This document shows positions 3,316 through 58,000 of a DNA stretch of 64,000 nt, piece by piece. Within the stretch, counting starts at the first letter, position 1. Each line of letters opens with the position of its first letter. The translations under genes were made by a program, and so were the position numbers. The notes under the pieces were generated by a model, which did not search any database, was not told the origin of the DNA, and saw only the letters and a program-made list of their open reading frames with translations. The stretch spans positions 25,664-89,663 of the forward strand of contig JAWLCQ010000001.1 in assembly GCA_041687095.1 (NCBI GenBank). Direction: 5' to 3'. The DNA comes from Phycisphaerae bacterium (lineage in GTDB: Bacteria; Planctomycetota; Phycisphaerae; SM23-33).

Positions 3316-3475
3316 ACCGCAGTGAATGGATCGGACCGGGGAGGACGGCATTTCGGTTCACGGGTCTGATCGTGCGGTGTTTCATGTCGCCGGTGACCGG
3401 TCTTGGGTGCATGCCGCGCGGGTACTCTGCGCGGTGCGATCAGGCAAGGCTGCGAGGGCAGTGGAGAGTGGTGGT

Positions 3476-3721
3476 ATGACCAAGGGCACCGTCAAGTGGT
3501 TCAACAATGCCAAGGGGTTCGGGTTCCTGCGCACCGAGGAGACGGCGGACGATATCTTCGTTCACCATACCGCCATCGAGTGCGACGGCTACCGGACCCT
3601 GAAGCAGGGCGAGCCGGTGGAATTCGATCTGGTGACGGGGCCGAAGGGCCTGAAGGCCGAACACGTGATCCGCCAGATGCAGGCGGCGCACGCGGCGGCG
3701 CAGCAGCAGGCTCCGGCGTAG
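3476..3721 (+). CDS. cspA: Cold-shock protein, CspA family (S1-like cold-shock domain)
   Basis: MTKGTVKWFNNAKGFGFLRTE..DIFVHHTAIE..GYRTLKQGEPVEFDL carries the RNP1/RNP2 motifs of CspA. The ATG at 3476 is in frame with ORF 3326..3721; the upstream part of that ORF is leader. Confidence 0.9.
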   Translation: MTKGTVKWFNNAKGFGFLRTEETADDIFVHHTAIECDGYRTLKQGEPVEFDLVTGPKGLKAEHVIRQMQAAHAAAQQQAPA

Positions 3722-3726
3722 GCGCC

Positions 3727-9803: not shown

Positions 9804-10498
9804 CGGGCGCCCTCCAGCAGGGCCCGCACCTCCTCGGGGGTGAGGACGGCGGCGAGGCTGGTGAGGGGCTTCTTGCCGCCGCTGCTCCGGAGATCGACTC
9901 GCTCCCACTGGCCCTCGGGGATCCGCGGAGCGTCCTCGTCGTTCGCCGATTCGCCCCCCAGCGCCGTGCCCGTGTCGGGCGCGTCGGCGAGTGGGGACCC
10001 GTCCTCAGGGCGGTCCAGGGCATGGGCGGGTGGGGGAGTCGGTGGGGCTGCGGGGGGGCGCGTTCGGGCGAGGGCGCGGCGGATCTCGTCACACAGCACC
10101 GCCCGCCCCACCAGCCGCACACCGCTGAGGGCGTCGGCGTCGAGGTTGGGCAGCAGCCCACCCACCCCCAGGATCTCCACGCCGTGGCGGCGGGCGAGTT
10201 CCAGCAGCCGCCCGTGTCGCCGGTGCAGCAGGCGCAGCTCGATGACGAGAACCGCGACGGGCCCGCGCAGGATCTCCGCGGCCGCCTCGTAGGCGGTGGG
10301 GACGCGGGTGCATGTCAAGCCGGCCGCACGGAGGGCGCGGTCGCTCTCCGCGTGGAACTCGTTGACTGGGGCGAGAATCACCACCCTCGCACCCTGGGCA
10401 GCACCATCATCGGCCGTCACGCCATGCACCTCCTGCACGCCCCCCTTTGTACCACGTCGGGCCGGATTGGACAACGGACATTGGGCGGAGGCTATCAT
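9800..10498 (-). CDS. Receiver-like (pseudo-receiver) single-domain protein, translationally coupled to the GGDEF gene
   Basis: C-terminal roughly 230 aa of ORF 9800..13123: ARVVILAPVNEF..AAGLTCTRVPTAYEAAAEI..VAVLVIELRLL..GVEILGVG follows the CheY fold pattern, but Glu replaces the phospho-Asp. The start is uncertain (MIAS at 10498, MPPLH at 10519). The remainder of the 1107-aa ORF is antisense to the kinase. Confidence 0.45.
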   Translation of the reverse strand: MIASAQCPLSNPARRGTKGGVQEVHGVTADDGAAQGARVVILAPVNEFHAESDRALRAAGLTCTRVPTAYEAAAEILRGPVAVLVIELRLLHRRHGRLLELARRHGVEILGVGGLLPNLDADALSGVRLVGRAVLCDEIRRALARTRPPAAPPTPPPAHALDRPEDGSPLADAPDTGTALGGESANDEDAPRIPEGQWERVDLRSSGGKKPLTSLAAVLTPEEVRALLEGAR

Positions 10499-10561
10499 GT
10501 AAGGGTGCAGGGGTGGCATATCGGAGCGGCCACTCCTGTGCCCGCAGGTTGGGGCACGGGC

Positions 10562-14518: not shown

Positions 14519-14626
14519 TACGCGTTCCACTCAATTCTCGGGTGGGTGCCGTGGTTTGCGGAGCGCAGCGGAGCAACCACGTCCAATCGACGCTGCCTGC
14601 GAATTATCTGGGATGCGTATAAGCCA
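14517..14626 (+). repeat. Copy 1 of a roughly 105-110-nt conserved intergenic repeat (second copy at 35586-35692, inverted), starting at the kinase stop codon
   Basis: atacgcgttccactcaattctcgggtgggtgccgtggtttgcggagcgcagcggagcaaccacgtcc...ctgcgaattatctgggatgcgtat is about 90 % identical to the reverse complement of 35586-35692. It has internal inverted symmetry (attctcggg / cccgagaat, atacgc / gcgtat). Confidence 0.6.
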
Positions 14627-14767
14627 CGGCGCAAGGCGGTATGCGTGGGTGATGAAGCGGTAGGGCGCGCACATGGCGAAGCGCAGCGGAGCCATGTGCG
14701 CGCGGGACGGATCCCGGTGATCCTCCCGCGGGCGGACGGCTCCGCTGTGCTCCGCCGCCTTCGCACC

Positions 14768-16996
14768 CTACGGCCGGCGACGGAGCGTGTCGCGGAGGCT
14801 GCGGACGTGGGCGCGGGCGGCGCGGAGGTCGTCATCGGTGGCGGGGGCGAGGCCCCAGCGGAGGCGGTAGTACAGGGCCACCAGGTCCTCCAGGGGCCCA
14901 GGGGGGAGGTGGAGGCGCTGGGCGGCGAGGGCGGCGATGTGGCGGGGCGTGTGCTGCGGCCCCGCCCGCACCCCGTGCCGCTCCAACAGTCTCAGCAGGT
15001 CCACCATGAACCGCAGCTCCCGTCGGTTGGGCACCAGGGCCCACGCGTGCCCCCGCCAGCTTCGCGGGCGGAGGGAGCGGCGGCGGAGAATCGTCAACTC
15101 CATCGCCAGGACCGCCAGCCCCAGCCCCGCGGCCGCCGGGATCAGCACCCCGTGCAGTTCCCCATGCAGCAGCAGGGCGAGCACGGCCTCCCACACCGTG
15201 CCCCCGACCCTCGCCAGCCAGTGGTACGCCCGCAGAACCCCCGAACGGAGCATCCCCCACAGCTTCCGCTGCGTGTCCCAATCGTACTGGAGGACCTGCT
15301 CGGACCACATCTGCTGCAGCCCGGACCAGTAGTCCGTCAGGGGCGACCACCAGGATCGCTGGATGTCGGCGTAGTCGCCGGGGGTGGCGTCGAAGACGAC
15401 CCAGTCGGTGGCGGGCGTGTAGACTTCGGTCCAGGCGTGGGCGTCGCGTTCGCGGATGACGTAGTCGCCCTCGTTGGCTCCGGCGGGGTCGATACGGAAC
15501 CCCGTGGCGAGGCGGGCCCGCACGCCCACGATGTTGCACATCACCGTCATCGCCGACGCGAAGTACTCGCAGTGCCCCCGCTTCATGTGGAACAGGAAGT
15601 CCTCCACGCCGTCCCGCTTCGGATCCGAGCCCTTCAGGTCCAGCGTGTAGGCGTACTCCTCCCGCAGCCGCTCCGCGATCCGCCCCGCGATCCGCAGGTC
15701 CAGTTCGTTGCGCCGGCGGGGCTCCGTCTGCCGCCGCGCCAGCAGATCCGCGCACCACTGCCGCGCCAGGACCTCCACGCGGCGGGTGGTGTGCACGTAG
15801 GGGCGGACCGCCAGCCCCGCCTCCTGCCGCTCCGCCAGGTAGGCAAGCTGCTCCTCCGACAGCGGGCGGGCCCACGAGTGGACCGTGTAGCGCGCGTACG
15901 GCCGGGGCGAGGGCTCGCGCGGCAGCGAGAGCGTGCCATCCCCCCCCACCCGCCCCTCGCCCGTCTCCCCGAAGACGCGAATCGCCGGGGCGATCCCGAA
16001 CATCGCCGGGGCGAGCGACTGCACCTGCGTGACCTCCTGGACAAGGACCTCCCCCGCCGGGGCGTCGGGACGGGGTGGGGGAGGGGAGGACAGGCCGGGC
16101 AACTGCCCGGGCTGAAAGCCGAACCAGCGGGAGTCGGCGTACTGCTCGAGGGTGTTCCCGCGCAGATACCAAGACCCCGGATCGTCCAGGTTCCCGTCCA
16201 CGTGCACGCGCATAACCGTACGGTCGGACAGGTACACCTCCCGCGTCTGCCCCAATTGGACGCTGCCGCTATACCCCGACGTCGCCGCTGACCGAGACCC
16301 CTGCAGCAGCGCCGCCGACCCCGCGGCCAGACGCGGCACGACGAGGAACATCACCCCCCCCAGCACGGACACCACGGCCAGGATCACCCCCAGCCGCCCC
16401 AGCAGCGCCCGCGTGGGCCAGTGGCGCATCATGTTCCACGCCGCCCGCCGGGGCTCGGGGGCGGCGCCCTCCACGCTGAGGCGGGCGGCGACGGTGTCAT
16501 CGAGGCCCCGTTTCAGCGTCAGCCGCATCGCCGTGTGCGACAGCAGCATCAGCTCGCACAGCAGCAGCAGGGCGTACCACAGGTCCTCGCAGAGCATCGC
16601 CCCGGTGACCACCAGGAGCATGCTGATCGCCAGGAGCTGGACGTAGTCGCGGTTGCGGCGGCGGTCGAAGAGCTTGCAGATCTCGATCAGGATGAGGTAG
16701 TGCCCCAGGATGATGATGAGCTGCTGGCGGCCGGCGAAAAGCTCCAGGAACATCACCGCGGTGGCGAGGATGAGCCCGGTGTTCAGGAGCGGGCGGCGGA
16801 CGTAGACCTCGCAGCCGACCTGGGCGGCGAGGAGGCTGACGCCCACGGCGGCGCTGCCGGCGAGGAGGTAGAACATGGCCCCCTCGGTGATGCTGAACCC
16901 CGCCATTGCCAGCCACACCGCCAGCAGCAGCGGGCGCTCCAGGCGCTTGCGCTCGGTGATGCGGATCTCGGTGTCGGTGTAGGGCCTCAGGGGCAT
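14768..16996 (-). CDS. Transglutaminase-like protein, TgpA-like (N-terminal DUF3488 membrane domain plus transglutaminase core)
   Basis: Six N-terminal TM helices, then a transglutaminase Cys-His-Asp core (GHCEYFASAM...DAHAWTEVY). It is the last gene of the MoxR-DUF58-TGase operon, and its start overlaps the DUF58 stop by 10 nt. Confidence 0.85.
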   Translation of the reverse strand: MPLRPYTDTEIRITERKRLERPLLLAVWLAMAGFSITEGAMFYLLAGSAAVGVSLLAAQVGCEVYVRRPLLNTGLILATAVMFLELFAGRQQLIIILGHYLILIEICKLFDRRRNRDYVQLLAISMLLVVTGAMLCEDLWYALLLLCELMLLSHTAMRLTLKRGLDDTVAARLSVEGAAPEPRRAAWNMMRHWPTRALLGRLGVILAVVSVLGGVMFLVVPRLAAGSAALLQGSRSAATSGYSGSVQLGQTREVYLSDRTVMRVHVDGNLDDPGSWYLRGNTLEQYADSRWFGFQPGQLPGLSSPPPPRPDAPAGEVLVQEVTQVQSLAPAMFGIAPAIRVFGETGEGRVGGDGTLSLPREPSPRPYARYTVHSWARPLSEEQLAYLAERQEAGLAVRPYVHTTRRVEVLARQWCADLLARRQTEPRRRNELDLRIAGRIAERLREEYAYTLDLKGSDPKRDGVEDFLFHMKRGHCEYFASAMTVMCNIVGVRARLATGFRIDPAGANEGDYVIRERDAHAWTEVYTPATDWVVFDATPGDYADIQRSWWSPLTDYWSGLQQMWSEQVLQYDWDTQRKLWGMLRSGVLRAYHWLARVGGTVWEAVLALLLHGELHGVLIPAAAGLGLAVLAMELTILRRRSLRPRSWRGHAWALVPNRRELRFMVDLLRLLERHGVRAGPQHTPRHIAALAAQRLHLPPGPLEDLVALYYRLRWGLAPATDDDLRAARAHVRSLRDTLRRRP

Positions 16997-18192: not shown

Positions 18193-18223
18193 TGCTGTCG
18201 CAGGATCCTTTGGGGAACCAAAT

Positions 18224-18258
18224 CCGAAACCCGAAACCCGAAACCCGAAACCCGAAAC
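18224..18258. repeat. Heptanucleotide tandem repeat (CCGAAAC)x5 in an AT-enriched spacer upstream of the DUF58 gene
   Basis: ccgaaacccgaaacccgaaacccgaaacccgaaac, followed by related aaatccaaaacacgaaatccaaatg. Local GC is far below the 70 % background. Confidence 0.7.
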
Positions 18259-18396
18259 AAATCCAAAACACGAAATCCAAATGACAAAAACCAGTCTCCG
18301 ACGCCGCGGGCAACCGGGTGCCCAATGCCACGACTGCGCTGTCTGCCACCGTGCCCCAAGAAACGCTACGGGTTCTGCGAGTCCCTGACGTCTGGG

Positions 18397-20530: not shown

Positions 20531-20591
20531 GAGGAAGCTGTCAGCTCTCAGCTCTCAGCGTTCAGCAGAGGAAGCATCGGCCACGCGGCTG

Positions 20592-20630
20592 TCGCTGAAA
20601 GCTGATCGCTGAAAGCTGAAAGCTGAAAGC
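20592..20630. repeat. Heptamer tandem repeat (GCTGAAA)x4-5
   Basis: gctgaaagctgatcgctgaaagctgaaagctgaaagctg, flanked by (CAGCTCT)x2 at 20551-20564 and (CAGCGAT)x3 at about 20659-20679. Confidence 0.7.
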
Positions 20631-20680
20631 TGCATCTGTTCCCCGATAACCTTCCGATCAGCGATCAGCGATCAACGAAT

Positions 20681-20788
20681 CAACCAGTCAACCAGTCAAC
20701 CAGTCAACCAGTTAACCAGTCAACCAGTTAACCAGTTAACCAGTCAACCAGTTAACCAGTCAACCAGTCAACCAGTTAACCAGTCAAC
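20681..20788. repeat. Octamer tandem array (YAACCAGT) x about 13 immediately upstream of pdxA
   Basis: caaccagtcaaccagtcaaccagtcaaccagttaaccagtcaaccagttaaccagttaaccagtcaaccagttaaccagtcaaccagtcaaccagttaaccagtcaaccaatcaacc: 8-nt unit with C/T alternation at position 1, 108 nt. Confidence 0.8.
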
Positions 20789-20811
20789 CAATCAACCAAC
20801 CACCGATCCTC

Positions 20812-21843: not shown

Positions 21844-21867
21844 GTGGCGGACGGGAAACGGAAGGGC

Positions 21868-22097
21868 CTCACGCAAAGGCGCAAAGGCGCAAAGGGAAGA
21901 AGAGGCAGCGGGAAGAAGAAGCCTGCACCGTCCCGCGCACGGCGCGCTTCATGGACGGGATGGACTCGATGGACAGTATGGACGCCATGGACCCGCGGGG
22001 TTCCGCTGTGCGGTCCTCTGCGTAATCTTGAAATCTGTGCAATCCCTCTCTCTCCGAGCTGTTTCTTCCCCTTCGCGCCTTTGCGCCTTTGCGTGAG
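21868..22097. repeat. About 30-bp near-perfect inverted repeat (arms 21868-21899 and 22065-22097, each containing (GCGCAAAG)x3) flanking about 165 bp that include a 23-codon Met-Asp-repeat micro-ORF
   Basis: Arm 1 is ctcacgcaaaggcgcaaaggcgcaaagggaag; arm 2 is cttccccttcgcgcctttgcgcctttgcgtgag (the reverse complement, with one indel). Between them ATGGACGGGATGGACTCGATGGACAGTATGGACGCCATGGAC is an in-frame MDGMDSMDSMDAMD... ending in TAA at 22022. Confidence 0.6.
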
Positions 22098-22250
22098 ACT
22101 TCCCCCGGTTCCCGGTTCCTGGCTCCTGGTTCCTTGGTCCCCCGGTTCCCCGGTTTCGACATTCCCGTACTCCCGCCCTCCCTCCCGCGGTAAATTTGCA
22201 TTTCGCGTCTAAGAACGTCCCTCCTGCGTCGTGATAGGGGATGGAGACCG

Positions 22251-27586: not shown

Positions 27587-27594
27587 GAGGTCAG

Positions 27595-27633
27595 GCGTGC
27601 AGGCGGCTGCGATTCGTTCCGCCGCCTGCACGC
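27595..27633. terminator. Bidirectional GC-rich hairpin between the convergent anti-sigma and glycosidase genes
   Basis: gcgtgcaggcggc-tgcgattcgtt-ccgccgcctgcacgc: a 13-15 bp stem in a 72-nt convergent spacer. Confidence 0.4.
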
Positions 27634-27658
27634 CCTGCCCCAGGGCCGCCTGGGCGCC

Positions 27659-30715: not shown

Positions 30716-30951
30716 CGGCAGTGGTCCTTGGCCTCGTGGGTCCGGCGCCGCGGCCCAGCCGCGATGTTCTGCTCTGCAGTCATGAACGTCTCCATCCTTC
30801 TCCTCCGCCCGCGGGATGCCCCGGGCGGGCTTCCGCCCCGCCCCGAACTCTCGTCACCCCGCCGGGCGCCGGTCGGACAGTCCCCGAAGCTTACGACACG
30901 CGCACCGCTGGGGTCCAGTGCCCGGACACAATGCCCAGGGCCATCGCATCT

Positions 30952-31096
30952 CCGTGGCACGGGCGTCTCGCCCCTGCGGAGAGGCGAGAACGGCCTCGCG
31001 GCGAGCCCAAGCGCCCCCAATCCACGGGGGTTTCTCCGCCGAAGGCCACGGGCTTTCCTGCCCGTGGGACCCATGGGCGAGACGCCCGTGCCACGG
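30952..31096. repeat. Perfect 22-bp inverted repeat (CCGTGGCACGGGCGTCTCGCCC / GGGCGAGACGCCCGTGCCACGG) separated by about 100 bp, within a 476-bp intergenic region
   Basis: Arm 1 at 30952-30973, arm 2 at 31075-31096. The loop contains a further short hairpin, ccacgggctttcctgcccgtgg. No credible ORF. Confidence 0.7.
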
Positions 31097-31191
31097 AAAT
31101 TCTGTTCACCGCCGTGCTCGCACGAGCGCGGCGGAACAGGGGTCGCAGAACCCCCGGTGCCCTGCGGGTGCGCCCGCGAGAGCGCGGCGGC

Positions 31192-34448: not shown

Positions 34449-35501
34449 ATGAGGAGTTACAGCACAATGTCACAGCATCCCCCCGAGTACTCGCCGTCCA
34501 CCTACCACCAGGAGCTTCTGCGGTCCGTGTCCCCGTCGCTTCGCTACGGGGGCGGGGATGCGGCGGAGTGGCAGCGCGAGGCGCGGGCGCGGCTGTCCGA
34601 CCTGCTGGGGTACCCCGTGCTGCAGCGGACGCACCGCCCGCCGCTCAACGTGCGCTCCCTCTGGAAACGCGAAGGGGAGTTGGGCGTCATCGAGAAGATC
34701 GTCTTCACCTCGCAACCCGGAGCGGACGTGCCCGCCTACGTGTGCCTGCCCGCCAACGCCGCCCCGCCCTACACGTTCTTCCTCTGCCTGCAGGGCCACA
34801 CCACCGGCATGCACCACTCCATCGCCGTCAGTCCCGATGAGGCCCTCCCGCTGGAGCCCGACGGCGATCGCGACTTCGCCCTGGGCTGCCTCCGCCGGGG
34901 CCTCGCCGCCGTGTGCATCGAGCAGCGGTCGTTCGGGGAACGGCAGGAAGGGCGGATCCCCCAGTCGATCGACTACCTCTGCCACCAGGCGGCCATGCAC
35001 GCGCTGCTGCTGGGCACGACGCTGCAGGCCGAGCGCATCTTCGACCTCGACCGCGCGATCGACTACCTCCAGCAGCGCGGCGACGCGGACATGGGCCGGA
35101 TCGGGTGCATGGGCAACTCCGGGGGGGGCACCACGTCGCTGCTGGCGGGGGCGATCCTGGACCGCATCCGGTACGTCATGCCCTCGTGCTGCTTCTCGTC
35201 GCTGGCGGCGTCGCTGCTGGGGACGTTCCACTGCGTGTGCAACTACATTCCGGGGCTGCAGCAGGTGCTCGACATGGGCGATCTTGCGGGCCTGCTGGCC
35301 CCGCGGGCGCTGGTGATCGTTAACGGCGTGAAGGACGGGATCTTCCCCATCGCACCCGCCCGCGAGGAGTTCCGCCGCACCCAAACCGTCTACGCCGCCC
35401 TCAACGCCGCCGACCGCTGCCACTTCGTGGAGGGCCCGGGGGGGCATCGGTTCTACGCGGACCTCGCCTGGCCGGTCATGCAGGACGAACTGGGCCGGTA
35501 G
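34449..35501 (+). CDS. Alpha/beta-hydrolase fold esterase (acetyl-xylan-esterase / dienelactone-hydrolase-like)
   Basis: Nucleophile elbow GCMGNSGGG (GxSxG). The start MRSYSTMSQ is aa 192 of ORF 33876..35501; the upstream part is non-protein-like. Confidence 0.75.
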   Translation: MRSYSTMSQHPPEYSPSTYHQELLRSVSPSLRYGGGDAAEWQREARARLSDLLGYPVLQRTHRPPLNVRSLWKREGELGVIEKIVFTSQPGADVPAYVCLPANAAPPYTFFLCLQGHTTGMHHSIAVSPDEALPLEPDGDRDFALGCLRRGLAAVCIEQRSFGERQEGRIPQSIDYLCHQAAMHALLLGTTLQAERIFDLDRAIDYLQQRGDADMGRIGCMGNSGGGTTSLLAGAILDRIRYVMPSCCFSSLAASLLGTFHCVCNYIPGLQQVLDMGDLAGLLAPRALVIVNGVKDGIFPIAPAREEFRRTQTVYAALNAADRCHFVEGPGGHRFYADLAWPVMQDELGR

Positions 35502-35585
35502 CCACCTGGTCGGGGTACATGCAGGTGTCGAGGCGTCCCGCCTCCAGGGCGTCGGCATCGGGTTTCCCCGCCGCCCGAAGGGCAC

Positions 35586-35692
35586 TCATACGCATCCCAG
35601 TTAATTCTCGGGCAGCGTCGGTCTGACGTGGTTGCTCCGCTGCGCTCCGCAAACCACGGCACCCACCCGAGAATCAAGTGGAACGCGTATCA
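35586..35692 (-). repeat. Copy 2 (inverted) of the roughly 105-nt intergenic repeat seen at 14517-14626
   Basis: Its reverse complement, atacgcgttccacttgattctcgggtgggtgccgtggtttgcggagcgcagcggagcaaccacgtcagaccgacgctgcccgagaattaactgggatgcgtatg, aligns with copy 1 at about 90 % identity. It lies between the convergent esterase and nucleoside hydrolase genes. Confidence 0.6.
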
Positions 35693-35749
35693 TGCCCTGC
35701 CGGATCAGGGCCTGGTGATCGTGCGTGTTCATTTGCGGGCTCCTGGGGT

Positions 35750-36694
35750 TCAGCGCGTGCGGGCGGAGCGGAAGACGTCCAGCAGGTGCCGGTGGGTGGC
35801 AGCCTTGTCGGCGGTGTCGACGATCTCGTGCGGGCCCTGGGGGTCGGGCGCGAACGTCGTGTAGCCCGTGAGGTCATCCCCCGCCATCGGCGAACCGTTT
35901 GCCAGGAACTGGTGCGACAGGCGAACGCCCACCCGCCCGCGCCTGTACGTGGCCACGTCGCGCTCGAACGCCATCGCCACCGTGAAGGGGTCCGCGAGCC
36001 CCACGGCGGTTGTGCCCCGGGCCTGGGCCCATCGTTCGCCGGTCGCCCGGACGGCCGCCAGGCGGTCGCCCGCGAGCATCTCGCCCAGCATGTCTCGGTC
36101 AAGGTCCATCCCGTGGATGCGGTCGACCGTCAGCAGGGCGAAGGGCGTCTGTACGCGCTGCACACAGACGGCCGTGGCGACGGGGTCGAGCATGACGTTG
36201 CACTCCGTCTCGGGATGCTCCCGTGGATAGTTCAGCCGCCCGCCCATGCTCACCACGCGGGCGAGCATGGCGGCGGAGTCGGGGTCGCACAGCAGCAGCG
36301 TCGCGAGGTTCGTGAACTGCCCGATGGTGATCAGCGTGATCTCCCCGGGGTGTCGGCGGATGGTCTCGATGAGCCAGGGCACGGCGCGGCCGGGCGGGTA
36401 GGTTCGCTGCGGGCGGGGCTGGGCGTCGGTTGGCCAGGGCTGCACGGGGTTGGTCCGCCAGTAGGGGGTGGCGCACATCGGGTGGTGCGCCCCGGCGTGG
36501 ATGGGCAGATCGCCGCGGCCGAGCTGGGTGCAGATCACCTCGGCGAGTTCGGCGCGCTGGGGCGAGAGCTTGCCCACGGTGGTCACGCCCAGCAGGTCGC
36601 AGTCGTCGCGCAGCAGGAGGTACGCCAGGGCGATGGCGTCGTCGGGATCGGTGCAGTAGCCGATGTCGGTATCCAGGATCACCTTGGTGGGCAC
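35750..36694 (-). CDS. Inosine-uridine-preferring nucleoside hydrolase family protein
   Basis: KVILDTDIGYCTDPDDAIALAYLL is the IUNH aspartate-cluster signature DTDxGxDDxxAL. GTG start (codon 12 of ORF 35750..36727) with an AAGGAG SD 6 nt upstream; the longer ORF start falls inside the palindrome. Confidence 0.8.
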   Translation of the reverse strand: MPTKVILDTDIGYCTDPDDAIALAYLLLRDDCDLLGVTTVGKLSPQRAELAEVICTQLGRGDLPIHAGAHHPMCATPYWRTNPVQPWPTDAQPRPQRTYPPGRAVPWLIETIRRHPGEITLITIGQFTNLATLLLCDPDSAAMLARVVSMGGRLNYPREHPETECNVMLDPVATAVCVQRVQTPFALLTVDRIHGMDLDRDMLGEMLAGDRLAAVRATGERWAQARGTTAVGLADPFTVAMAFERDVATYRRGRVGVRLSHQFLANGSPMAGDDLTGYTTFAPDPQGPHEIVDTADKAATHRHLLDVFRSARTR

Positions 36695-36713
36695 GCGGGG
36701 CTCCTTTGGAAAA

Positions 36714-36859
36714 TGGTAACCGTTCACGGGGTGCCACCCTCAAGCGGCGCCGTTCAGCCGCTTGGGGGTGCTGCGGCGTGGGGAGCCCCACACCCCCAAG
36801 CCGCGAACAGCATGCGGCTTGAGGGTGGCACCCGGTTTGAACGGTCCCGTGAACGGTTA
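36714..36859. repeat. 146-nt nested triple palindrome (three concentric stems) between the rhamnosidase stop and the nucleoside hydrolase start
   Basis: Outer arms ggtaaccgttcacggg / cccgtgaacggttacc, middle arms gtgccaccctcaagc / gcttgagggtggcac, inner arms ccgcttgggggtg / cacccccaagccgcg. Coordinates are approximate to within 1-2 nt. Confidence 0.75.
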
Positions 36860-45827: not shown

Positions 45828-46005
45828 GTACGCCGGGGCCCGGCAGGCGTTTCGGGGGGAGGCAAGCGCATCTCTTCGTGCCGTGCCGTTTTCAGAATTC
45901 ACGATGGCAGCAAACCCCATCGTCGCTCCGACGATGGGGACCGGACAATGCGATTGAACCGCGGGCGTGCCCACGAGGCGCGCCCGTCACCCAAGGAGAG
46001 GGCCT

Positions 46006-49000
46006 ATGTCCGCGGATGCGGTGCAGCGCGCCAAGGTGCGCGGGAGCCTGACGAACGGGTCGGGGCGGATCGAGCTTCTGGAGCAGCGGATTCTTCTCAG
46101 CGGCACGCCGCTCCCCGACGCCGCCCGCCTGGGCCTGATCGAGGGCCTGACGGAGTTCGCCCAGTGGACCGACCGCCTGGGGCAGACGGAGGCCTTCACC
46201 ACGGGGCTCCCGCTGAGCGACGGGGCCACCCTGGGCACGGTCACCGCCGCCGGGGACGTCGTGCAGACCTATCTCGTGGATCGCGTCTGCCAGGTGCTCC
46301 AGAGTCCCGGAGCGACGCTGGAGGACGTGGTGAGCGCCCTGCGGGATCTGGGCGGCAGCTTCGTCGGGGATCTCGGGGGCCGGCAAGTTCCGCTGGACGT
46401 GCTGGTCGACCCGGCAGCCGTCGTCGGGGCATGGGTGGATTCCGAGATCTCCTTCTCCCTGCCGTTCCAGGCGCTGCTGCGCCCGCCGTCCGGGGTGGAC
46501 CTGGACGACGCGCTGGGGGCCCTGGGGTTCACCTCGGGCGCCGAATTCGCCCTCGATGCCCTCGGGAGCCTCACGCTGGACCTGACGTTCGGGTTCGACC
46601 TTTCCGAAGGCCTCGGTCAGGCCGAACAATTCTTCCTCCGCCCCGTCGAGATGCTGCTGGAGGCGGACCTGTCCGGCGCCGACTTCGATCTGCCCGATCT
46701 GCGCATGGGCTTCATGGATCTGGGAATCACGCACGGATCGATCTCACTGTCCGGATTGGCCGACGTGAGCTTCGTCAACCCCGACGCCGACCTCCTGGGC
46801 AGGATCACCCTCGATGAACTGCGGAACACGGCGATGGACGTGCTGGCCGCCGTGACGCCCGGGGGCACGCTCCAGGCGTCGCTGCCGCTGTCGGGGGTGC
46901 TGGGGGCCATGGGCCTGGGAGCCCCGCAGATCTCGCTGAACTGCCTGGACGTGTTCCAACTGCCGGTGGAGATGGGCTTCAATGCCGACTTCGAGGCGCT
47001 GCTGCCCCTGGGGCGGATCGATCCGGCGATGGTGCTGGAGGCGTTCGACAGCCTCGGGGCGTCGTTGACGTCGCTGCAGCGATCCGACGTGTTCGCGCGG
47101 ATCGAGGGACTGGGCGCCCAGAAGCTCTCCGATCTGCTGCGGCTGGGGGAGAACCTCCGGGGGATCATCGACGAGGTGCTGATGCGCCCGATCGATGGCG
47201 CCCACGGGCTCTACGAGTCGGCCTTCGACTCGGCCCAGAGCCTGCTGGAGCGCCTGGCGGCCTACCCGCAGAGCGTCCTGAGCAGCAGTGCGGACTACCT
47301 GGACGGCGTGCTGACGTACACGCTTCGTTTCGCCGCGAGCGACGCCCTGGAGGGGGACTTCGCCTACGACTACTCCGACGGTCCGCTGTCCCTGAGCGCT
47401 ACGGGCACGGTCAGCGGCGAGGTCGGGACCGAGGTGGCGCTGACGCTGGGGCTGGACCTGTCGGCCCTGTCGGCGGAGGTGATCGCGGCCGGGGCCGCCC
47501 CGGTCGGTGGGCAACTGGATCGCTCGGCCGAGTTCTCCGTGCAGGTGGGATCGGACGCGCCCGTGCGCGTGACGGTTCCCGCCGAGGCGACGGCAGACAA
47601 CGCCGGCCTGGACGATCTGGTGGCCGACATCAACGCCGCGCTGGCCGACGCGGGGCTGGTGGCCTGGACGGGTGCGGGGGCGGTGCTGCTGGTCGAGGCC
47701 CGCCGGGTCACCGTCGAGACCGCCGACGGGGAGCGGCAGCGCATCGCGCTGCGGACGCTGGGCCCGTGGGTGGCGGCTCGCCTGAGCGTCACGCCCGGGG
47801 CGGGGGCGGGGCAGCTTGGCTTCACGAGCGCCATGGAAGACCACTGCCGCCCCGAGGACTTCGCGTTCGTGCAGGACGCGGGGGCGTCGGCGAGCATGCT
47901 TGTGGCGGCCCAGATGCCCGAGGGGCACGGGCGCCTGGGCATGCTGGGTGGGATCACGTTGACAAACGGAGCCGCCTGGGTCGGCGGGACCGGGTACACC
48001 CCCGCGAGCCCCGTCCCAGCCACCGTGTCGTTCCAGATCGGGCAGGCGGGCGTTCGCTACGGTCTGGGCGACCTGGCGGAGACGATCGGGTCCGACGCGG
48101 CCGGTCTGGTCGAGGACTCGCTGACGACGGACGTGCAGGCGGGCTACCAGTTCACGGTGACGATCGAGGGCCAGACCGCCGAGTTGCTGGGCCTGGACCC
48201 GCTGGCGGTGCGGAGCATCGAGGTGCTGTACCCGGACGTGGTGGGCGGCCTGGCGCCGGTCATCAGCACCGTGGGGATGGACGAGCTGCTGGCCGCGGGG
48301 CAGCAGATCACGCGCGGGCAGATCGTCGAGGCGCTGCACGCCCTGGTGGACTTCCTGCAGGGGCTCGAATCGCTCCAAGGCCCGCTGAGCTGGCGCCTGC
48401 CCGGAACGGGCCTGAGCGTCAACGAGATGGTGGACTGCGCCCAGGATCTCGCGAGGCTCATCGAGCGGATCAACGCCGAGGGGCTCACCGCGCTGAACGA
48501 CAGCCTGTCGGGCCTCGCCGCCACCGTCCGCGACGTGCTGGGGCTCGCGGAGGACCAGTTCCTCCTGCGGATCGAGCCCGCGTCGGCCGCCGGGGAGGCC
48601 GCACTGCGGATGACGCTGGACCTCGACTACGCCTTCGACCGCCAGGCGGCGGTGAACCTGGACCTCGAAACGCTCATGGGGGCGAGCCTCTGGCCCCAGA
48701 TGGCGGACTACACGAGCATCCTCGGCGAATCGGGCGGGGGGACCGTTCGCGTGGACGGCAGCGCCCACGTCACGATCGACCTGGGGGTGGGCCTGTCGAG
48801 CCTCGATCCGTTCCTGTACGAGGGCACCGCCATCGGCGGGGCGCTCCGCGTGCAGGGGCGCGACCTGGCGTTCGACCTCACGCTGGGCCCGCTGCCGGGC
48901 ATGGCCGTCGCGGGCGGGCATCTGCTGGTGGGCGACTGCCCCGAGGGCGGACCGGCGGCGTACGGTGCGGGCGAGATCCCGGCCGCTGCGTTCCGCGTGG

Positions 49001-52000
49001 GCCTCACCGACACCGATCCCGCCACCGTCGAGCGCTACTACCTCTCGTCCATCGCCGACAGCGACGTGACGGGGACGCTGGACGCGCAGGTGGACCTGGT
49101 CCTGCCCTTCGAGGGCGACTGGGTGGACCCCGCCGACGCGGACCTGTGGCTGCTGGCGGGCGTGGACGCGCAGGGCGCCCTGGCGGACGTCGACGGTGAC
49201 TTCCCGACGTTCGTCATGCCCGACACGCTGAACCTCGAGGCGATGATCGACGGGCTGCGGACGCTGCTGACCCGCCTCCGCGACGCCTTGGGCACGCAGG
49301 CGTTCAACCTCAGCCTGCCCATCGTGGGCACGCAGCTCAACACCGCCTACCTCGACTCCCTGCTCGCCCGCCTGGGCGGTTGGTCGCCCTACGACGCCCT
49401 CCACGCCGCCACCTGGGCGACGAACAACCTCGCGGCGATGTTCGGGGCCTCCGCCCAGATCCAGGCGGCCGACACCGGGGACATGGACGCCGCCGACGCG
49501 GCGGCCGAGTGGATCATCCAGCTCTCCGACACCTACGCCTTCGGGGCCGCCGACGTGGACTTCGACCTGGGCCTGCCCGGGCTGGGGCTGGACATCGACG
49601 CCCACGCGGACGTGAGCCTCGACTGGGTCTTCAACCTGGGCCTGGGGTTCAGCAAGAACAAGGGCTTCTACCTCATCACCGACGACGGGGGGTTCGCGAC
49701 GGGCCTGGCGTTCGCCGGAGAGTCGCCCACGCTGGGCGTGGCGCTCACCGCGGGCGTCACCGATCTCGACGCGAGCGGGCGACTGGGCTTTCTGAACCTG
49801 ACGGCCGAGGCGATCCCCGGGGCGCCCATCGGGGCGAGCGGGCAGTTTGCCATCGACCTTTCGGGCCTCAACGGGCGGGTGTACTACAACCGCCTGGCGT
49901 CGTCGATCTACGACGTGGACGTCGCCTACGCCCTGTCCGCCGACGTCAATGCGCGGCTGGAGATCGCCTACAGCGCCAACTTCCCGTCGATCCTGTCGGA
50001 CCTGGTCATGCACTGGTCGTTCGACAACGACGACGCCACGGTTGACGCGCCGCTGTCGCTCGCCCTGGAGGACATCCGCATCGACCTGGGCGGGTATCTC
50101 GGTGGGGTCGTTTCGCCCGTGGTGGAACGCATCAACGAGGTCTTCGAGCCCCTGCAGCCGATCCTGAACGTTCTCAACACGACCGTGCCGGTGGTCTCGT
50201 ACGTCCTGGACCGCGACGTGACGATCCTCGATCTCGCCATCATGGCCGGGGGCTCGGGGGGCTACGACGTCGAGTTCCTCTCGGACGTCGCGGCCGTCGT
50301 CGACCTCGCCGGGCGGCTGCCCGCGCTCCAGTCGCACTACATCCACCTGGGGACGTACACGTTCGGTTCGGGCCTCGTGTCCGCCGACTCGCCGCTGGAC
50401 CTGGCGGTCAACGGCGGGGCGTTCGAGGGCAACGAGAACGCCCTGGTCGACGCCCGCAACGCCGGCGGCGGGTTCGGGGCGTTCCTGGACGACCTGCAGG
50501 AGATCGGGATCGAGATCCCGCTGCTGGCGGAGCCCCTCCGCGTCGTCGAGTTGTTCCTCGGCCGCGATGTTGAACTGGTGCAGTACACCACCCCGCGCCT
50601 GGCGCTGGACATCGACTTCCGCCAGCAGACCCCGATCATCTTCCCGTGGCTGGTGTTCACGATCGGGATGGACGCGAGCATCTCCGCGCAGGCGGCCTTC
50701 GGGTACGACACGCGCGGGTTGCGGCAGTACGCCGACGGGGGCGACACGGGCGACCTGCTCAACGGGTTCTACATGCGCACGGGCCCGCAGTACCCGCTGA
50801 TCCGCTTTGCGGGGCACGCCGCGCTGGGCCTGGGCGTGAGCCTCGGGGGCGTCGTCGCCGCCGGGGTCGAGGGCGGGATCGGGCTCGATGGGCACATCTA
50901 CGCCACCGACGCCGACGGCGACGGGCGCCTGCACTGGGACGAGCTGCCCGCGTTTGAACCGGGCGAGATCCTGTCGCTGTTCGATTGCGACGGGAGCATC
51001 TACTTCGACGTCCGCCTGTGGTGGGAAACGCCGATCGACGACGGAACCTACACGCTGGCGAAGGTGACGCTGATGGACTTCGGGGCCGGCACCGGCGGGG
51101 CCATCGAGCACGAGGCGGACATCGAGTTCGACCAGCGCGCCATGGGCAATTCCGTGGACCTCGGCCAGGCCCCGACCGCTCGCGTGTACCACCCCGAGCT
51201 GTGGGATTCGCGCGGAGTGCAGTGGTACCGCTTCTCCACCGACCGCGACAACGAGGTCTTCGATTTCTCGGCCGTCCGCGCCAGCGCGGGCAACGACATG
51301 GCCCTGGCCGTCTTCAACGCCGACGGGGAGCGCCTCGCCATGTCGGCCGGCTGGGGCAGTTCGCAGGCGACGCTCAACGACGTCCGCCTGGGCGAGCGGG
51401 GCGTGTACTACCTCGCCGTCATGTGCAACGACCCCGAGTGGCCGCTGGAGAGCGTCTCCGTCACGCCCAACACCGACGCGCTGACGGGCACGGTGGTGTA
51501 CTACGTCAACGACCTGGACGACTCGCCCGACCCGTACCTGATGGGCAACCCCTACACGTCCGCCCCGGGCGACGACGCCAACAGCGGTTTGGACCCCGCG
51601 CACCCCAAGGCGAGCATCTCCGCGGTGGTCTCATCGTTGACAGGCAACGAGGGGCGCGTCTACATCCTCGTCGACAGCGGGCACTACCGCGTGGACGACG
51701 AGGCCGAGCGCATCCGCCTGGCGCAGGGCAACGTGTGGTTCGTCGGGACCTGGCACACGAACGTGACGTTCGCCGCCGGTCCGCTGTTCGACCTGAACAA
51801 CGCCGGGGACGTCCACCTCTACGGGTTCAATCTCTACGGCGAGGGGACCGCGACGGCGGTCCGTACGCGCGGGGACGGCCTGTGGGACGCAGCCGCGGGG
51901 CATTATGCACCCGTCGATTCGCTCGTCATCGAGGGCAACCGCTTCGACGGCGTGGGCGTGGGCATCGACGCCGGGTGCTTCCAGAGCGTGGTGATCTCCG

Positions 52001-55000
52001 GCAACCGCTTCACGGGCGAAGGGGCCGCGGGCGTGGTGTTGGGCACATCGGCGATGGCGATGGTCTCGGGCAACAGCTACCGCGGGTACGTGGGGCAGTA
52101 CGGGCTGCGCACGGGGGGCCGGTTCAGCGCGTTCGTCGCCGACAACGAGATCGCCGGGACCGTCGCGTCCGTCTGGGCCGACGACGGCGGGTCGGTGTAC
52201 CTGCGCGGCAACACGATCAGCGGGAGCGTCGTGCTTCGCGGCGACCGCGACAACGTGGTCCGCGGGAACACCATTACCGGCGACGTGCGCCTCATCGCAC
52301 CGGCCGATCCGAACTGGGGCCAGATCGTCTGGCCGGGCGAGTGGGTGGAGGCCAACGCCCTGGCGCCCCTCCCCTACGACGAGGCGTTCTCCCAGGCGAT
52401 CGTGGGCAACGTGATCTCCGGGGCAGTCCGCGTCGAGTACGCGACAGCCACCCTCATCGAGGGCAACGTGTCCCTGGGCTCGGTGGTGGTGGCCGCGGGG
52501 AACAAGAACACGCAGATCCCGATCATCGTGCGGCTGAACGAGTCCATCGACGCCGGGGCGGGCGTCGCCGTCGAGGTGACGGGCCTGTCGTGGGCGGACA
52601 TCACCGACAACGCCCTGATCCGCGGGGCCACGGGCGTGCTCATCGACACCAGCGACCTGTGCACCGTCAGCGGGAACCTCATCGACGCGACGCAGTACGG
52701 CCTGCGGATCGTCAACGCCGGCAGCATGCTGGCGATGGAGAACCGCATCGACGCGGGCGTCGAGGGCGTCCGCATCGAGGGCAACTACTTCGTGCGGCTG
52801 GAGGGCAACGAGATCTCGGGCGGAGAGTCTTCGATCCGCGGGATCGGCAGTTGGGTGGTCCCGCGGGTGACGGGCAACCGCCTGACGGGCGGCGTGTGGT
52901 TCGAGGGCGACGGGCTGCTCGTCCCCCCCATGCTCCGCCGCCTGGGGCAGTTCCGCGAGAACGACGTCGACGGGACCGTGACGATCGACACCGGGCACCG
53001 CCTGGAAGTCCTCGGGAACCTCCTGCGGACCGGGCGACTCACCGTGACGACGGGGGGCAATGCGACGGTTTCGGACAACCTCGTGAACCAGGAGATGATT
53101 CTCACGATCGGCGGGTCCGCCGACGTGTCGTGGAACCTCGTGGACCTGGGCGACCTGCGCCTGACCGTCGCTTCGGGGCAGGCGTGGACCGTGTCCGACA
53201 ACACGCTCACCGGCGGATACGTCGGCGGGGGCGACCTCGTCGTCAGCGGCGGGACGCGGGCGCAGGCCCAGGGCAATACGGTTGTCAACGGCGACCTGCG
53301 AGTCACGATCACCGACGCCCCGACGTCTGCGACGCCCGCGAGCGTCCTCACCGACAACACGGTCTCCGGCGTCCTGTCGCTCGTCGGCGGGCCTGGCGCG
53401 GACATCCACGACAACCCGTCGCTCGGCGGTCTGCACGTGGCCATCGGCGGGGCGTGGGGGCAGGCGGATCGGGCCTGGCACACGCGGATCACCAACAACC
53501 CGGTCATCACCGGGGACTCCCACGAGGGGCGCGGGACGATCGACGTGACCGTGCCCGGGACGCTGCTGGTGAGCGGCAGCGTGGTGCAGCGCGGGCACAG
53601 CTACTTCACGGCGGCCGGGGCTGTGCGGATCGAGGGCAACGACTTCGTCGCGGGCGACCTGTTCGTCGCCATCCCCGGCGACAGCGGGACCTTCGGCGAG
53701 GCCCCCAGCGTTCTGGCGGGCAACTGGGTGCGGGCGGGGAGCGTGTGGTACAGCGGGGGGGGCGGGCTGGACCTCTACGACAACCCGATCCTCGACCGCA
53801 CGGTGGACATCGAGATCACCCAGCCGTGGACGGCCATGCCCGCGGGGCGGATGTACCACACCCGCGTCTTCACCACTCCGGGCGGGGCGCAGGCCATCGG
53901 CAACCTGCTCCTCGACATCCCCGGATCCGCCGAGGTGCGGGACACGCACTTCGACGGGTCGTGGGGCCTGCAGATCGGCGGGTCGAGCCTCGTGGGGCAC
54001 CTCGTCGAGAACGTCACGACGACATTCGGTGGGATCACGATCACGTCGGGCCCGGCGGCAACCCTGCGCGGGAACACCGTGTGGGGCGGGGTGACGGTGA
54101 ACGTGGCGGGCAACGAGTTGCCCGCGGGGACGGACTGGGCGACGGTCGTCGAGGACAACACCGTCAGCGACGGGATCTGGCTGAACCTCGACACGCGCGC
54201 GGAGGTCCGCCGCAACACCATCACCGAGAGCGGGCAGGCCTTCAGCGACGGCAGCCTGCGGATCGCGGGCGCGGCCGACAGCGGGCACGTGGTCACGGGC
54301 AACACGATCCACGGCGGCATCGAGATCACCAGCGGGCCGTGCGCGACGATCGAGGGCAACTCGCTGGCGTTCGGGAGCATCGTCCTGAACATCCCGGACG
54401 ACGAGGTCATCGTCGGGCAGGCGAACGTCACGCACATCCGCGGGAACGTGCTGGCGATGGGCGGGGTCTCGGCCCGCCTGGGCGCCGCCGCCGTCATCGA
54501 ACCGCTCGCCCTCAGCGGCGGGGGCGAACAGCCCAACGTGGTGAGCTTCCTCACGCTGACGGGCAGCTCGGCCGCCGCGCACCAGGTCCGCGGGAACCGC
54601 GTGACGGGCGACATCAGCGTCTCCGCCGGCCCGGCGGTCGTCATTGAGGACAACACCGGCCCGCTGGCGAGCGATCCGCTGGGGACGATCCGCGTCCGCC
54701 TCGGGGGGGCGGGGCAGGACGGGAGCATCGTGTCCGGCAACCGCGCGGGGACGATCGACCTTCAACTCGCCTCCGGCGGGACGATCGGCCACAACACCGC
54801 CGGCGCGGGCATGCTCCTGACGCTCGGCAACGCCGGTGGGGTGCTGCACAATACCGTGCTCGGCGGCGGGATGGCCCTCGCCGGCAGCGGCGGGGACGGG
54901 CATCTTGTGCAGGGCAACGTCGTCACGGGTGGGGTGCGAGTTTCCGCCTCGGCGGCCATCGCCCACGACATCACGGGCAACACGATTTCGGGCGCAGCGT

Positions 55001-58000
55001 ACGGCCTGGAAGTCACCGGGGGCGCCCCGGCCACGGTGCACGACAACGTCCGCATCGAGGGCGATTCCATCGGGATCCGCATCGTCGGCAACGCCCGCGT
55101 CACCGTCGAGGACAACCCCGCGATCCTCGGGACCGCCTGGGGCGTCTGGGCGGACGGGGACGGGGCCGTGCTGACGATCCGCGGCAACGACATTGTCGGG
55201 GGCGTCTACGTGGACAGCCTGCTGGGGGCCCTCATCGAGTCCAACGAGATCCACGACGGGACCACGGGCGTGTACCTCACGGGCGGCTCGACGGACGTGG
55301 TGCGCGGGAACGTCGTCCGCGGGTTCTCGACGGGCGTGCAGTTCCTGTCCGCGGCGGCCGAGGCGTACGGTAACGAGATTCACTCCAACGTCACGGGCGT
55401 CCGCACGCCGGCGACGCTGGGCGGTTCGGATTGGATCGCCCCCAACGCCATCCACCACAACACGGTGGGCGTCGAGGCCCTGGCGGGGGCGACGGTCCGC
55501 TTCAATCGCCTCGAGGCCAACGCCATCGGCATCGACGCCGCCGGCAGCGTCTCGGTGCATCACAACGTCCTGGCGGACAACAGCGCCCAGGGCGTGCTGG
55601 TCGACGCGGCCTCCAACGTGCAGGTGGTGAACAATACCATTGTGACCGCCGACGGGTTCGGCGACGGGGTGGTGGTGCAGGGCGGGTCCTCCGGGGCAGC
55701 GGTGCGGAACAACATCCTCTGGTCGCGCGGCGGGTACGGGCTGTACGTCGCGAACGACTCGCAGGTGGGCCTCGCCAGCGACTACAACAACCTGTACGCC
55801 TCGGGCAGCGGGCGCGTCGTGTGGTACCAGAGGGCGTACGACGACCTGCTGGACTGGCAGCTCGATTCGCTATACGACGCGCACTCGATCGGCTACACGC
55901 GGATCGACCCGCTGCGGGACGACCCGCGCTTCGTCGACCCCGCCGGCGGCGACTACCGCGTGCAGATGGGCTCGACGGGCATCGACCGCGGCGACCCGGC
56001 GAGCGATTTCACGCTCGAACCGTCCGTCAGCGGCGGGCGGATCAACCTTGGTGCGTTCGGTGGGACGAGCGAGGCCGCCCAGTCCTCGGCGGCGTATCTG
56101 CGCGTCGAGTACCCCGACTTCCACGCGGACTGGCAGGTGGACCGCGCGCGGAACATCCGCTGGTCGCAGTGGAACGTCGCGGGCGACGTGCGCGTCGAGG
56201 TCTACCGCACCGACGGGACGCCGGCCGCCGCGGTGGGGACGTTCGCGGCGGCGGCGGGCGAGTGCAGTTGGAGCCCCCGGATGGCTGGGCTTTCGGTGGA
56301 CCTCTCGCAGGGCTATCGCGTCCGCGTGACGTCCGTGAGCGACGGGAGCGTCTTCGCCGAGTCCCGCGAGCCGTTCTACGTCGTCCCCGTCGGGGGCACG
56401 TTCTACGTCAACGACGCCCTCACGGGCGACGACCAGTACACGACGGCCGCCGGGGACAACCGCAACCCGGGCCTGTCGCCCGACGCGCCCAAGGCGAGCG
56501 TCCTGGCGACCCTGCGCCTCTACGACCTCGGGGCGGGCGACGTCATCCGCATCGACGACGGGTACTACCCCCTGCCCACCAACCTGCTGCTGGGCGGGCC
56601 GGGGAGCGCGGGCGACGACGAGGGCGTACACCTCGACGGGCCGACGCTCGCGGGCAGCGAGGCCGTCCTCGACCGCGTCGTCACCCGCGCGGGGACGATC
56701 GCCGTGGACGTGAACCGCGCCGACGGGATCGAGCTGCGGAACCTCACGATCCGCAACGGTCAGCGCACGCTGTGGGTCCGCGAGGGGTCCGAGCGGTTCG
56801 TGGGTGAGCACCTGGACATCTCGGGCAGCGCGCTCGACGGGATCCGCATCGAGAGCGGCTGCGAGGACGTGTGGCTCCAGTCGCTGCGGGTGCATGGCAA
56901 CGGTGGGGCGGGCGTGTACGCCGCTCCTGCCCGGGTCACCCTCCTCGACAGCGAGATCGCCAACAACGCAGGAACGGGCGTTTCCTTGCCCGCGGCGGGT
57001 GCGGCGCGCATCGAGGGCAATACCGTCAGTGGGAACGCGGCAGGCATCGTCATCACGCACGCCGTCGCGGGCACGACGGCCATCGTTGGCTCGCTGGGGC
57101 ACGGCAACCTCGTGCGGAGCAATGCGGGCGACGGGATCACCGCGGTGGGCCGCGTGCTGGTCGAGGGCAACACGGTGTCGGGGCACACGGGGGCGGCGGG
57201 CATCCGCATCACCGAGGGCACGTCGGCGTATCCCGAGGCGAACGACAACGTCGTCAGCGGCAACGCGACGGGGATCGAGTCCAACACCCGCGCCTCGGTG
57301 CGCGGGAACCTGGTGTACGACAACGCCGTCCACGGCATCCGCGCGCGCGGGAGCGAGACCCTCGCGAACAACGTCGTTCACGACAGCGGCGTGGGCATCC
57401 AGCTCTGGTCGTACTACACCGGGACAATCGAGCACAACGTACTGTACGCCAACGCGACGGCCGCGGTGCGCGTCACGGGCCCCAGCACCGGGGCGATCTC
57501 GCTGCGCCACAACACCATCCATCAGACCGCCGGGGACGGCGTGCGGCTGGAAACCACCGCCGACGGTGTGACGCTCGATAACAACATCATCGTCGTCGAG
57601 GGCGGGTACGGGATCTACGTCTCCGACAACAGCCAGCCGGGCTTCTCCAGCGACGACAACCTGCTCCGCGCCACGGGCGGGGGGCGCGTGGGGTACTGGC
57701 AGGGCGAAGCGGGCAGCCTGGCGCAGTGGCGGCAGGCGTCGGGGCAGGACTCGCGCAGCCTGTCGGACGACCCGCGGTTCGTCAATGCGGCCGGCGGCGA
57801 CTACCACCTCCAGAGCCTTACCGGCAGCATGCACGGGGGGACGCTGGCGGTGGTGCTCGACGGGGCGACGGGCCTGCCCGTCGCGGCGGCGGGGACCCTG
57901 GAGTTCGACGGGGCCCAGTCGCCCGCCATCGACCGCGGGCGGGCGGGCAGCGCGTACGATCAGGAGCCGGCCCCCCACGGGGCGTTCGCGAACCTCGGGG

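Follow-up and report, generated by a model that had tools for sequence, protein, structure and literature searches.

We identified, in the window (the whole 64,000-nt stretch of DNA that was analyzed), a 113-nt element present in two inverted copies, which is probably a non-coding, non-autonomous, mobile palindromic repeat of the REP/REPIN class, MITE-like in appearance, that survives where it is harmless. Such an object is of an ordinary kind and adds one member to the REP/MITE class. The earlier note on this DNA had spoken of a REP-type element, and this designation is supported by a core corresponding to dispersed intergenic hairpins of Planctomycetota, by the housekeeping genes that neighbour those hairpins, by the GTAG hairpins located beside copy 1 and by published precedent. 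Against the same reading stand the tag of the core, GGGTGCC and not the canonical GTAG, and the presence of two full copies only. Within 64 kb, the REP copies consist of these two composites and of two more hairpins with the same loop.

Using a repeat search of the window, we observed that the segments 14511-14623 and 35585-35697 form an inverted pair of 113 nt that is 91% complementary, by far the longest inverted pair in the window. BLASTN within the window gave 91.15% identity between the two copies over 113 nt (E = 8.8e-35). With nhmmer, two full copies only were found in the window, and each of them weakly matched its own reverse complement, hence the element is palindromic. In a MAFFT alignment including 40-nt flanks, the similarity runs from T[Y]ATACGC to GCGTATCAT and the identity collapses beyond these limits. 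These results confirm the second, inverted copy of roughly 105 nt that the earlier note had placed at 35586-35692, with coordinates right to a few bases, and the opposite orientation of the two copies follows from the inverted match. The distances given for copy 2 also proved correct: 85 nt from the esterase stop (the TAG of the hydrolase-fold ORF, at 35499-35501) and 58 nt, counted from 35692, to the nucleoside-hydrolase stop (a minus-strand TGA at 35750-35752).

Table 1. Coordinates of the repeat, of its parts and of the other tagged hairpins in the window.
Feature	Position	Strand	Remark
Copy 1 of the 113-nt element	14511-14623	+ (G-rich strand)	Inverted match to copy 2
Copy 2 of the 113-nt nested-palindrome repeat	35585-35697	- (better-folding, G-rich, tag-bearing strand)	91% identical to inverted 14511-14623
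Outer 5' arm ATACGCGTTCCACTTGATTCTCGGG	35666-35690	-	Pairs with 35588-35612
Outer 3' arm CCCGAGAATTAACTGGGATGCGTAT	35588-35612	-	Pairs with 35666-35690
Core REP-like unit: tag GGGTGCC, stem CGTGGTT(T)GC/GCAACCACG, 13-nt loop GGAGCGCAGCGGA	35627-35664	-	Identical in both copies
21-nt apical module TTGC-GGA-GC-GCA-GC-GGA-GCAA	35632-35652	-	Exact 22-mer with the module matches at least 80 loci in many phyla
GTAG-tagged REP hairpin A, 13-bp stem, loop GAAGCGCAGCGGA	14660-14703	+	In the copy-1 spacer
GTAG-tagged REP hairpin B, loop GGAGCACAGCGGA	14730-14771	-	Inverted relative to A
105-nt palindrome of two inverted GGGTGCC-ACCCTCAAGC-loop-GCTTGGGGGTG units	36729-36833	two units, inverted	Spacer upstream of the nucleoside-hydrolase gene

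As presented in Table 1, the element is a nested palindrome, in which imperfect arms of about 25 nt surround a 38-nt unit made of the GGGTGCC tag and a hairpin. Read 5' to 3' on the G-rich strand, the parts follow each other as 5' arm, tag, stem, loop, stem, a 14-nt spacer and 3' arm. The tag is unpaired and lies 5' of the core stem. The core hairpin spans 32 nt, its 9-bp stem being interrupted by one bulge and closed by a purine-rich loop of 13 nt, in keeping with the palindromic stem-loop of 20-40 bp that characterizes REPs, and the 25-nt arms form, in both copies, the terminal inverted repeats that characterize MITEs. On the G-rich strand of copy 2, the arms make 21 Watson-Crick pairs, 3 G.T pairs and 1 mismatch (of 25), whereas the opposite strand has the same 21 Watson-Crick pairs but 4 mismatches and no G.T pair. 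Degradation has gone further in the arms of copy 1, which keep 18 Watson-Crick and 3 G.T pairs beside 4 mismatches. As RNA, copy 2 folds at -65.3 kcal/mol on the minus strand (z = -6.3) compared to -49.5 kcal/mol on the plus strand (z = -3.9), the 3 G.U pairs of one strand being 3 A.C mismatches on the other. Between the two copies we counted 10 differences, all of them outside the tag, the hairpin and the adjacent bases (positions 24-73 of 113); with randomly scattered differences, the chance of such a distribution is about 0.007. No compensatory difference was observed between the copies, and copy 1 has lost pairs, passing from 1 to 4 mismatches. Since the differences lie outside the core and none is compensatory, the arms look like sequence decaying neutrally after insertion. 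The core is either constrained or homogenised.

We then consider the relatives of the core in other genomes. A 22-mer, GTTGCTCCGCTGCGCTCCGCAA, was scanned against one genome per species and matched at least 80 loci (L001-L080). In Planctomycetota MAGs, we observed GGGTGCC-GTGGTTTGC-loop-GCAACCACG, base-for-base identical to the core of the window. Among the matches listed, one Planctomycetaceae MAG gives at least 10 core loci and other MAGs add more, the unit being found also at L051, L054, L073, L061, L062 and other MAG loci. These copies occur several per MAG, and a locus can contain them in either orientation, in some cases antisense to the gene upstream; according to crude ORF calls they are always intergenic, usually just 3' of a stop codon, and their neighbours are housekeeping genes (flagellar, LpxK, Lgt, Ddl). 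In addition, an Armatimonadota MAG carries GTAG-GGGCGCGTTTTGC-loop-GCAACACACGCCC, a canonical GTAG-tagged REP with the same loop as the element. The context of the tag reads GTGG-GTGCC in the window and GTAG-GGTGCC at L051, and the hairpins at 14660 and 14771 carry GTAG. In a Phycisphaerae-like relative (TgpA 49% identical, 70% GC), a hairpin located 3' of the TgpA gene in a convergent spacer (L098:3945-3985) reads GGGTGTC-GTGGTT-GGCGCCGCCGGTCGG-AACCACG, with the tag and stem of the window core and a different apex. The Planctomycetaceae MAG also contains GGGTGCC-GTGGTTTGC...GCAACCACG with a longer apex, GAAGTCCC-GAA-GGGACGAA (L024:~1100-1190 and L079:~5150-5200). Apex and stem would appear to behave as exchangeable modules, since tag and stem recur with another apex, including one ended by a GAA triloop (L024, L079).

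Other REP-type hairpins are present in the window. Hairpins A and B possess a 13-nt loop as in the element, on unrelated stems; they are inverted and able to pair into a larger hairpin, as a REPIN-like pair, and the GTAG of hairpin B contains the TAG stop of the TgpA-like gene. The doublet at 36729-36833 lies 1 kb from copy 2 and represents a second GGGTGCC-tagged family, of which single units were observed at Planctomycetota MAG loci (L004:799, L024:1183 and L054:3263). At another convergent junction of the window (27587-27658), we observed an unrelated GC hairpin whose 14 bp pair perfectly (27594-27634) and which lacks a T run; the stop codon of the VWA-domain gene upstream, TAG, is there overlapped by a GTAG. 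REP superfamilies tagged by GTAG or CGTC, which include families in Planctomycetes, have been described (Di Nocera et al., 2013; PMC3733652). In the same survey, REP stems contain G.T pairs, loops reach 20 nt with GC termini, units form clusters and inverted dimers, a GTGG variant of the tag exists in O. terrae, and longer palindromes regularly enclose a REP, no empty form of them being found (A. variabilis, H. neapolitanus). By analogy, the composite would be a further example of a REP embedded in a longer palindrome. The survey also describes Y1 transposases flanked by long inverted repeats (TIRYT) (PMC3733652).

We searched for the full composite outside the window. In JGI metagenomes, the right-arm probe (one of two probes of 20-22 nt) gave no match, and the probe of the arm/core junction gave 3 chance matches with no further similarity. 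For the arms alone, an nhmmer comparison with the fetched loci (about 650 kb) yielded no match with E under 0.4; the outer arms of the window are absent from all 80 listed core-matching loci, and BLASTN of the element against a plasmid collection gave no match. Since the loci, the two metagenome probes and the plasmids all gave no copy, the composite is therefore known from this genome alone, with two full copies, both within the 64-kb window. Among the genes of the 64-kb window, Pfam annotation revealed no transposase, Y1/HUH protein, RAYT, tyrosine recombinase or integrase, and no RAYT was found among the top 25 families of ORFs neighbouring the MAG core copies. No autonomous IS with the ends of the element was detected in the window, the ~650 kb of loci, the plasmids or with the two metagenome probes.

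These searches bear on a first alternative, which we consider unlikely: a classical MITE, that is, a deletion derivative of a DDE-transposase IS, whose terminal inverted repeats would allow cut-and-paste movement and whose insertion would duplicate a 3-bp TNA target. The lack of coding capacity, the length of 113 nt and the imperfect terminal inverted repeats of about 25-27 nt agree with it. The bounds of the element, TGA...TGA in copy 2 and TGA...TAA in copy 1, could be such a duplication; however, T-N-A ends are equally readable as an extension of the inverted repeat, and the same TGA stands on one side of both copies. Neither the window nor the loci nor the plasmid collection gave an IS or transposase ending in this way. 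Moreover, the element has a tagged hairpin of REP type at its centre, and on one strand its arm mismatches are G.T throughout, a sign of single-strand folding.

Concerning placement, both copies lie between convergent genes as the earlier note had it, in spacers of 249 nt (14519-14767, copy 1) and 248 nt (35502-35749, copy 2), the two longest of the five convergent spacers in a window of which only about 7% is intergenic. Using an approximate gene map, the element was found at 2 of 5 convergent junctions versus none of 21 others (Fisher one-sided p = 0.03). Copy 2 is flanked by an Abhydrolase_7 hydrolase-fold ("esterase") ORF and a minus-strand IU_nuc_hydro nucleoside-hydrolase ORF, and copy 1 by the plus-strand gene of a PAS hybrid histidine kinase of 1498 aa and, on the minus strand, by a transglutaminase gene of the TgpA type. 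The first bases of copy 1 form the TGA stop of the histidine kinase (14516-14518). This gene (10022-14518) itself encodes at least five tandem PAS modules with a DNA periodicity of 387-399 nt (families D4, D8 and D17). Placement had been described as independent of orientation, which the present data do not establish: both copies are the same way round relative to the nearest upstream gene, although a sample of two settles the matter in neither direction. For both copies and for both GTAG hairpins, the sense strand of that gene is the G-rich one. By crude ORF calls, about 13 MAG core copies are co-oriented with the upstream gene and 5 are anti-oriented; with the four hairpins of the window this makes 17 of 22 co-oriented (p ~0.008, from heuristic ORF calls and non-independent copies). 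No orthologous empty site was found among the nearest relatives (protein identity of 69% for the nucleoside hydrolase and 49% for TgpA): one of the contigs checked breaks off 61 nt past the stop codon, and in the remaining ones other genes follow downstream.

Pfam annotation of essentially all genes revealed ordinary chromosomal genes throughout the window. The host is a high-GC planctomycete with its best protein matches in Phycisphaerae. All the named best matches of the TgpA-like protein come from Phycisphaerae MAGs, so that the window most probably belongs to this class. Several further features were observed. A third short repeat, CCGTGGCACGGGCGTCTCG, occurs at 82-115, 30952-30970 (+) and 31078-31096 (-), the last two forming an inverted pair about 100 nt apart in the 30716-31191 spacer and the further copy lying inside the first ORF. 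Intergenic simple repeats are present at 20531-20811, 21844-22250 and 18220-18260: about 20 tandem 8-mers (AACCAGTY) just upstream of pdxA, after inverted GCTGAAA/CAGCTCT heptamer arrays; in front of the gene for an ECF sigma factor, inverted GCGCAAAG octamer arrays from which a hairpin of some 250 nt could form; and five tandem CCGAAAC heptamers. At 3129-3722, a cold-shock-protein gene (3477-3722) follows a highly structured, untranslated spacer of 348 nt. An ORF of more than 6000 codons (45967-64000) runs off the window end, with internal repeats of about 2 kb (families D3, D7, D11 and D14-D16) that suggest a giant repetitive surface protein.

The convergent placement raises a second alternative, a bidirectional terminator, as the earlier note proposed, or a 3'-UTR stabiliser, selected by the host between convergent genes. 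The proximity of both copies to stop codons (0-85 nt) and the high stability of the hairpin on both RNA strands would suit such a role, and the hairpin at 27594-27634, also without a T run at a convergent junction, suggests that U-less hairpins may be the local norm. Canonical criteria nevertheless give the terminator no support. Behind the hairpin, both strands lack a T/U run, and a promoter/terminator scan of 34500-36800 found no hairpin-plus-T-run terminator. The fold is strand-asymmetric, and the differences between copies break arm pairs without compensation. Moreover, the core is a dispersed repeat in other genomes, where it is sometimes antisense to the upstream gene, and the element is absent from 3 of the 5 convergent junctions. 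Because there is no U-tract, the arms decay without compensation and the core is a dispersed repeat, a host-selected terminator is disfavoured and appears to us improbable.

A small RNA gene or a cis-regulatory RNA is a much weaker candidate, which we consider very unlikely. The structure is stable, and its G.U pairs are concentrated on the strand that is, for both copies, the sense strand of the nearest upstream gene. However, hairpins of single-stranded DNA would be expected to show this G.T asymmetry just as well, attC bottom strands being a described case (PMC5027507), and there is no covariation between the copies. Rfam gave no match at gathering thresholds over the whole window and, in E-value mode on the copy-1 region, only spurious miRNA hairpins far below threshold. 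The scan of 34500-36800 found no sigma-70-like promoter. A tRNA or tmRNA origin was also rejected, since the window contains no such genes.

Among the matches listed, about 55 loci of the 22-mer scan carry a 70-nt palindrome. We identified these palindromes as integron attC sites because they read GCCTAAC...GTTAGGC (RYYYAAC/GTTRRRY), show compensatory changes at 6 of 21 pairs, form co-oriented arrays of 3-7 sites per 8-kb locus when searched with a covariance model (R1) built from 38 attC sites, and are accompanied by TIGR02249 integron integrases in four loci (L012, L044, L057 and L071; E down to 1e-130). This widespread attC family gave no match in the plasmids. Although the 21-22-nt apex of the element is identical to that of this family, the element being itself an attC-type site marking a gene-cassette boundary is effectively refuted and keeps almost no probability: model R1 matches the apex only (positions 30-50 of 78, 25 bits, compared to 30-100 bits over the full length for real attC sites), RYYYAAC/GTTRRRY ends are missing, the copies lie among housekeeping genes in inverted orientation, separated by 21 kb, and not in a co-oriented array, and no integron integrase is encoded in the window. 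Hairpin A likewise matches the model around its apex only.

The apical module is shared more widely than the element. The same 13-nt loop caps attC sites with quite different stems (L047, L052, L058, L072, L019 and L032), and attC sites capped by the module occur in MAGs of Chloroflexota, Planctomycetota, Desulfobacterota, Cyanobacteria, archaea and others, the phyla being those of MAG binning; L072, L052, L032, L011 and L058 are examples in co-oriented arrays. The module also caps GTAG-type REPs (Armatimonadota and a "GVMAG" contig), AT-rich hairpins of viral contigs and the REP-like repeats of Planctomycetota; the loci concerned are L001-L080 and L086-L095. The first scan fixed the middle triplet as GCA, so the triplet-unbiased data are the extra matches and a scan of viral contigs in which this triplet was left free (TTGCGGAGCNNNGCGGAGCAA). 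The viral scan gave 11 matches on unrelated stems, with GAA in 9, GTA in 1 and ACT in 1 (GAA or GTA in 10/11); in non-viral loci the triplet is GCA, GAA or GTA, rarely ACA or GAC. The module can be written TTGC-GGA-GC-GNA-GC-GGA-GCAA on the purine-rich strand, which in attC sites is the bottom strand. This bottom strand is the one that recombines. Work by Hirao and Yoshizawa reportedly established that d(GCGNAGC) forms exceptionally stable DNA mini-hairpins, and we take the G-N-A middle triplet of the module to be the signature of this mini-hairpin. DNA folding of the apex gave -8.8 kcal/mol for the G-strand and the C-strand alike, with a parameter set that contains no GNA-triloop terms. A search of the literature with the loop and motif strings found no relevant paper. 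Purine enrichment, more G.T pairs and a conserved GAA tip have been described for the attC bottom strand (PMC5027507), and a conserved GC-rich apex of attC sites resists SSB (PMC5737091).

It is conceivable, and we put this forward only tentatively, that the 21-nt tip is a portable, strand-specific cap for single-stranded DNA hairpins, carried on unrelated attC, REP-like and viral stems. The attC and REP systems alike rely on a hairpin formed by one of the two DNA strands. If the idea is true, attC and REP/RAYT systems would share or exchange a common folding-nucleation device, the window element would be a REP carrying this device, and the module could resist melting by SSB or help cruciform extrusion. 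The competition of the hairpin with SSB and with duplex DNA would then be directly testable on a defined 21-nt sequence.

Returning to the REP-class reading of the element, we propose that its copying proceeds, or formerly proceeded, through a folded single strand. Good folding would be limited to the G-rich strand with the tag, owing to its 3 G.T pairs and to the G/A-rich apex of GNA triplets. Copying would be performed in trans by an HUH/Y1 tyrosine transposase of the RAYT/TIRYT type, presumably encoded elsewhere in the genome. The copies would persist in convergent spacers because insertion there disrupts neither coding sequence nor promoters. Both convergent transcripts would thereby gain a very stable 3' stem-loop, not necessarily a selected one, which could slow 3' exonucleases or impede read-through; such an effect of a 3'-end RNA hairpin, if any, would be a by-product. 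Overall, the element explains two unusually long convergent spacers and supplies the stop codon of the histidine kinase, and a GGGTGCC-tagged family is added to the catalogue of REP-like repeats. The value is mainly for annotation, as such repeats break assemblies and spawn spurious ORFs in planctomycete genomes.

Compared to known systems, the element shares with Rho-independent terminators a GC-rich hairpin just 3' of stop codons and differs from them by the absence of a U-tract, its length of about 110 nt, its branched structure and a repeat sequence common to other genomes. With attC sites, it has in common an imperfect palindrome, a purine-rich, G.T-rich strand that folds better (PMC5027507) and a GC-rich apex (PMC5737091), which in one attC family is exactly its own over 21-22 nt. 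In contrast, it lacks the R''/R' core sites, the overall architecture, a cassette array and a nearby IntI, and the action as a folded single strand, known for attC sites, is for the element inferred. MITEs resemble it by a length of about 100 nt, the absence of coding sequence, terminal inverted repeats, an intergenic location and possibly a 3-bp flanking repeat; the element departs from them by its REP-type centre, its strand-asymmetric pairing, an ambiguous candidate target duplication and the lack of a detected parent IS. REP/REPIN sequences carry GTAG or CGTC tags and form head-to-head dimers, whereas the core tag of the window is GGGTGCC and the element is a single unit inside arms of about 25 nt, with two composite copies only and no RAYT among the window genes. 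What the element nevertheless shares with REP/REPIN sequences (PMC3733652) is a short hairpin unit with a tag, scattered outside genes in either orientation, G.T pairing within stems, the clustering of units in one spacer as in BIMEs, the presence in Planctomycetes and, for some families, a location inside longer palindromes that are never "empty".
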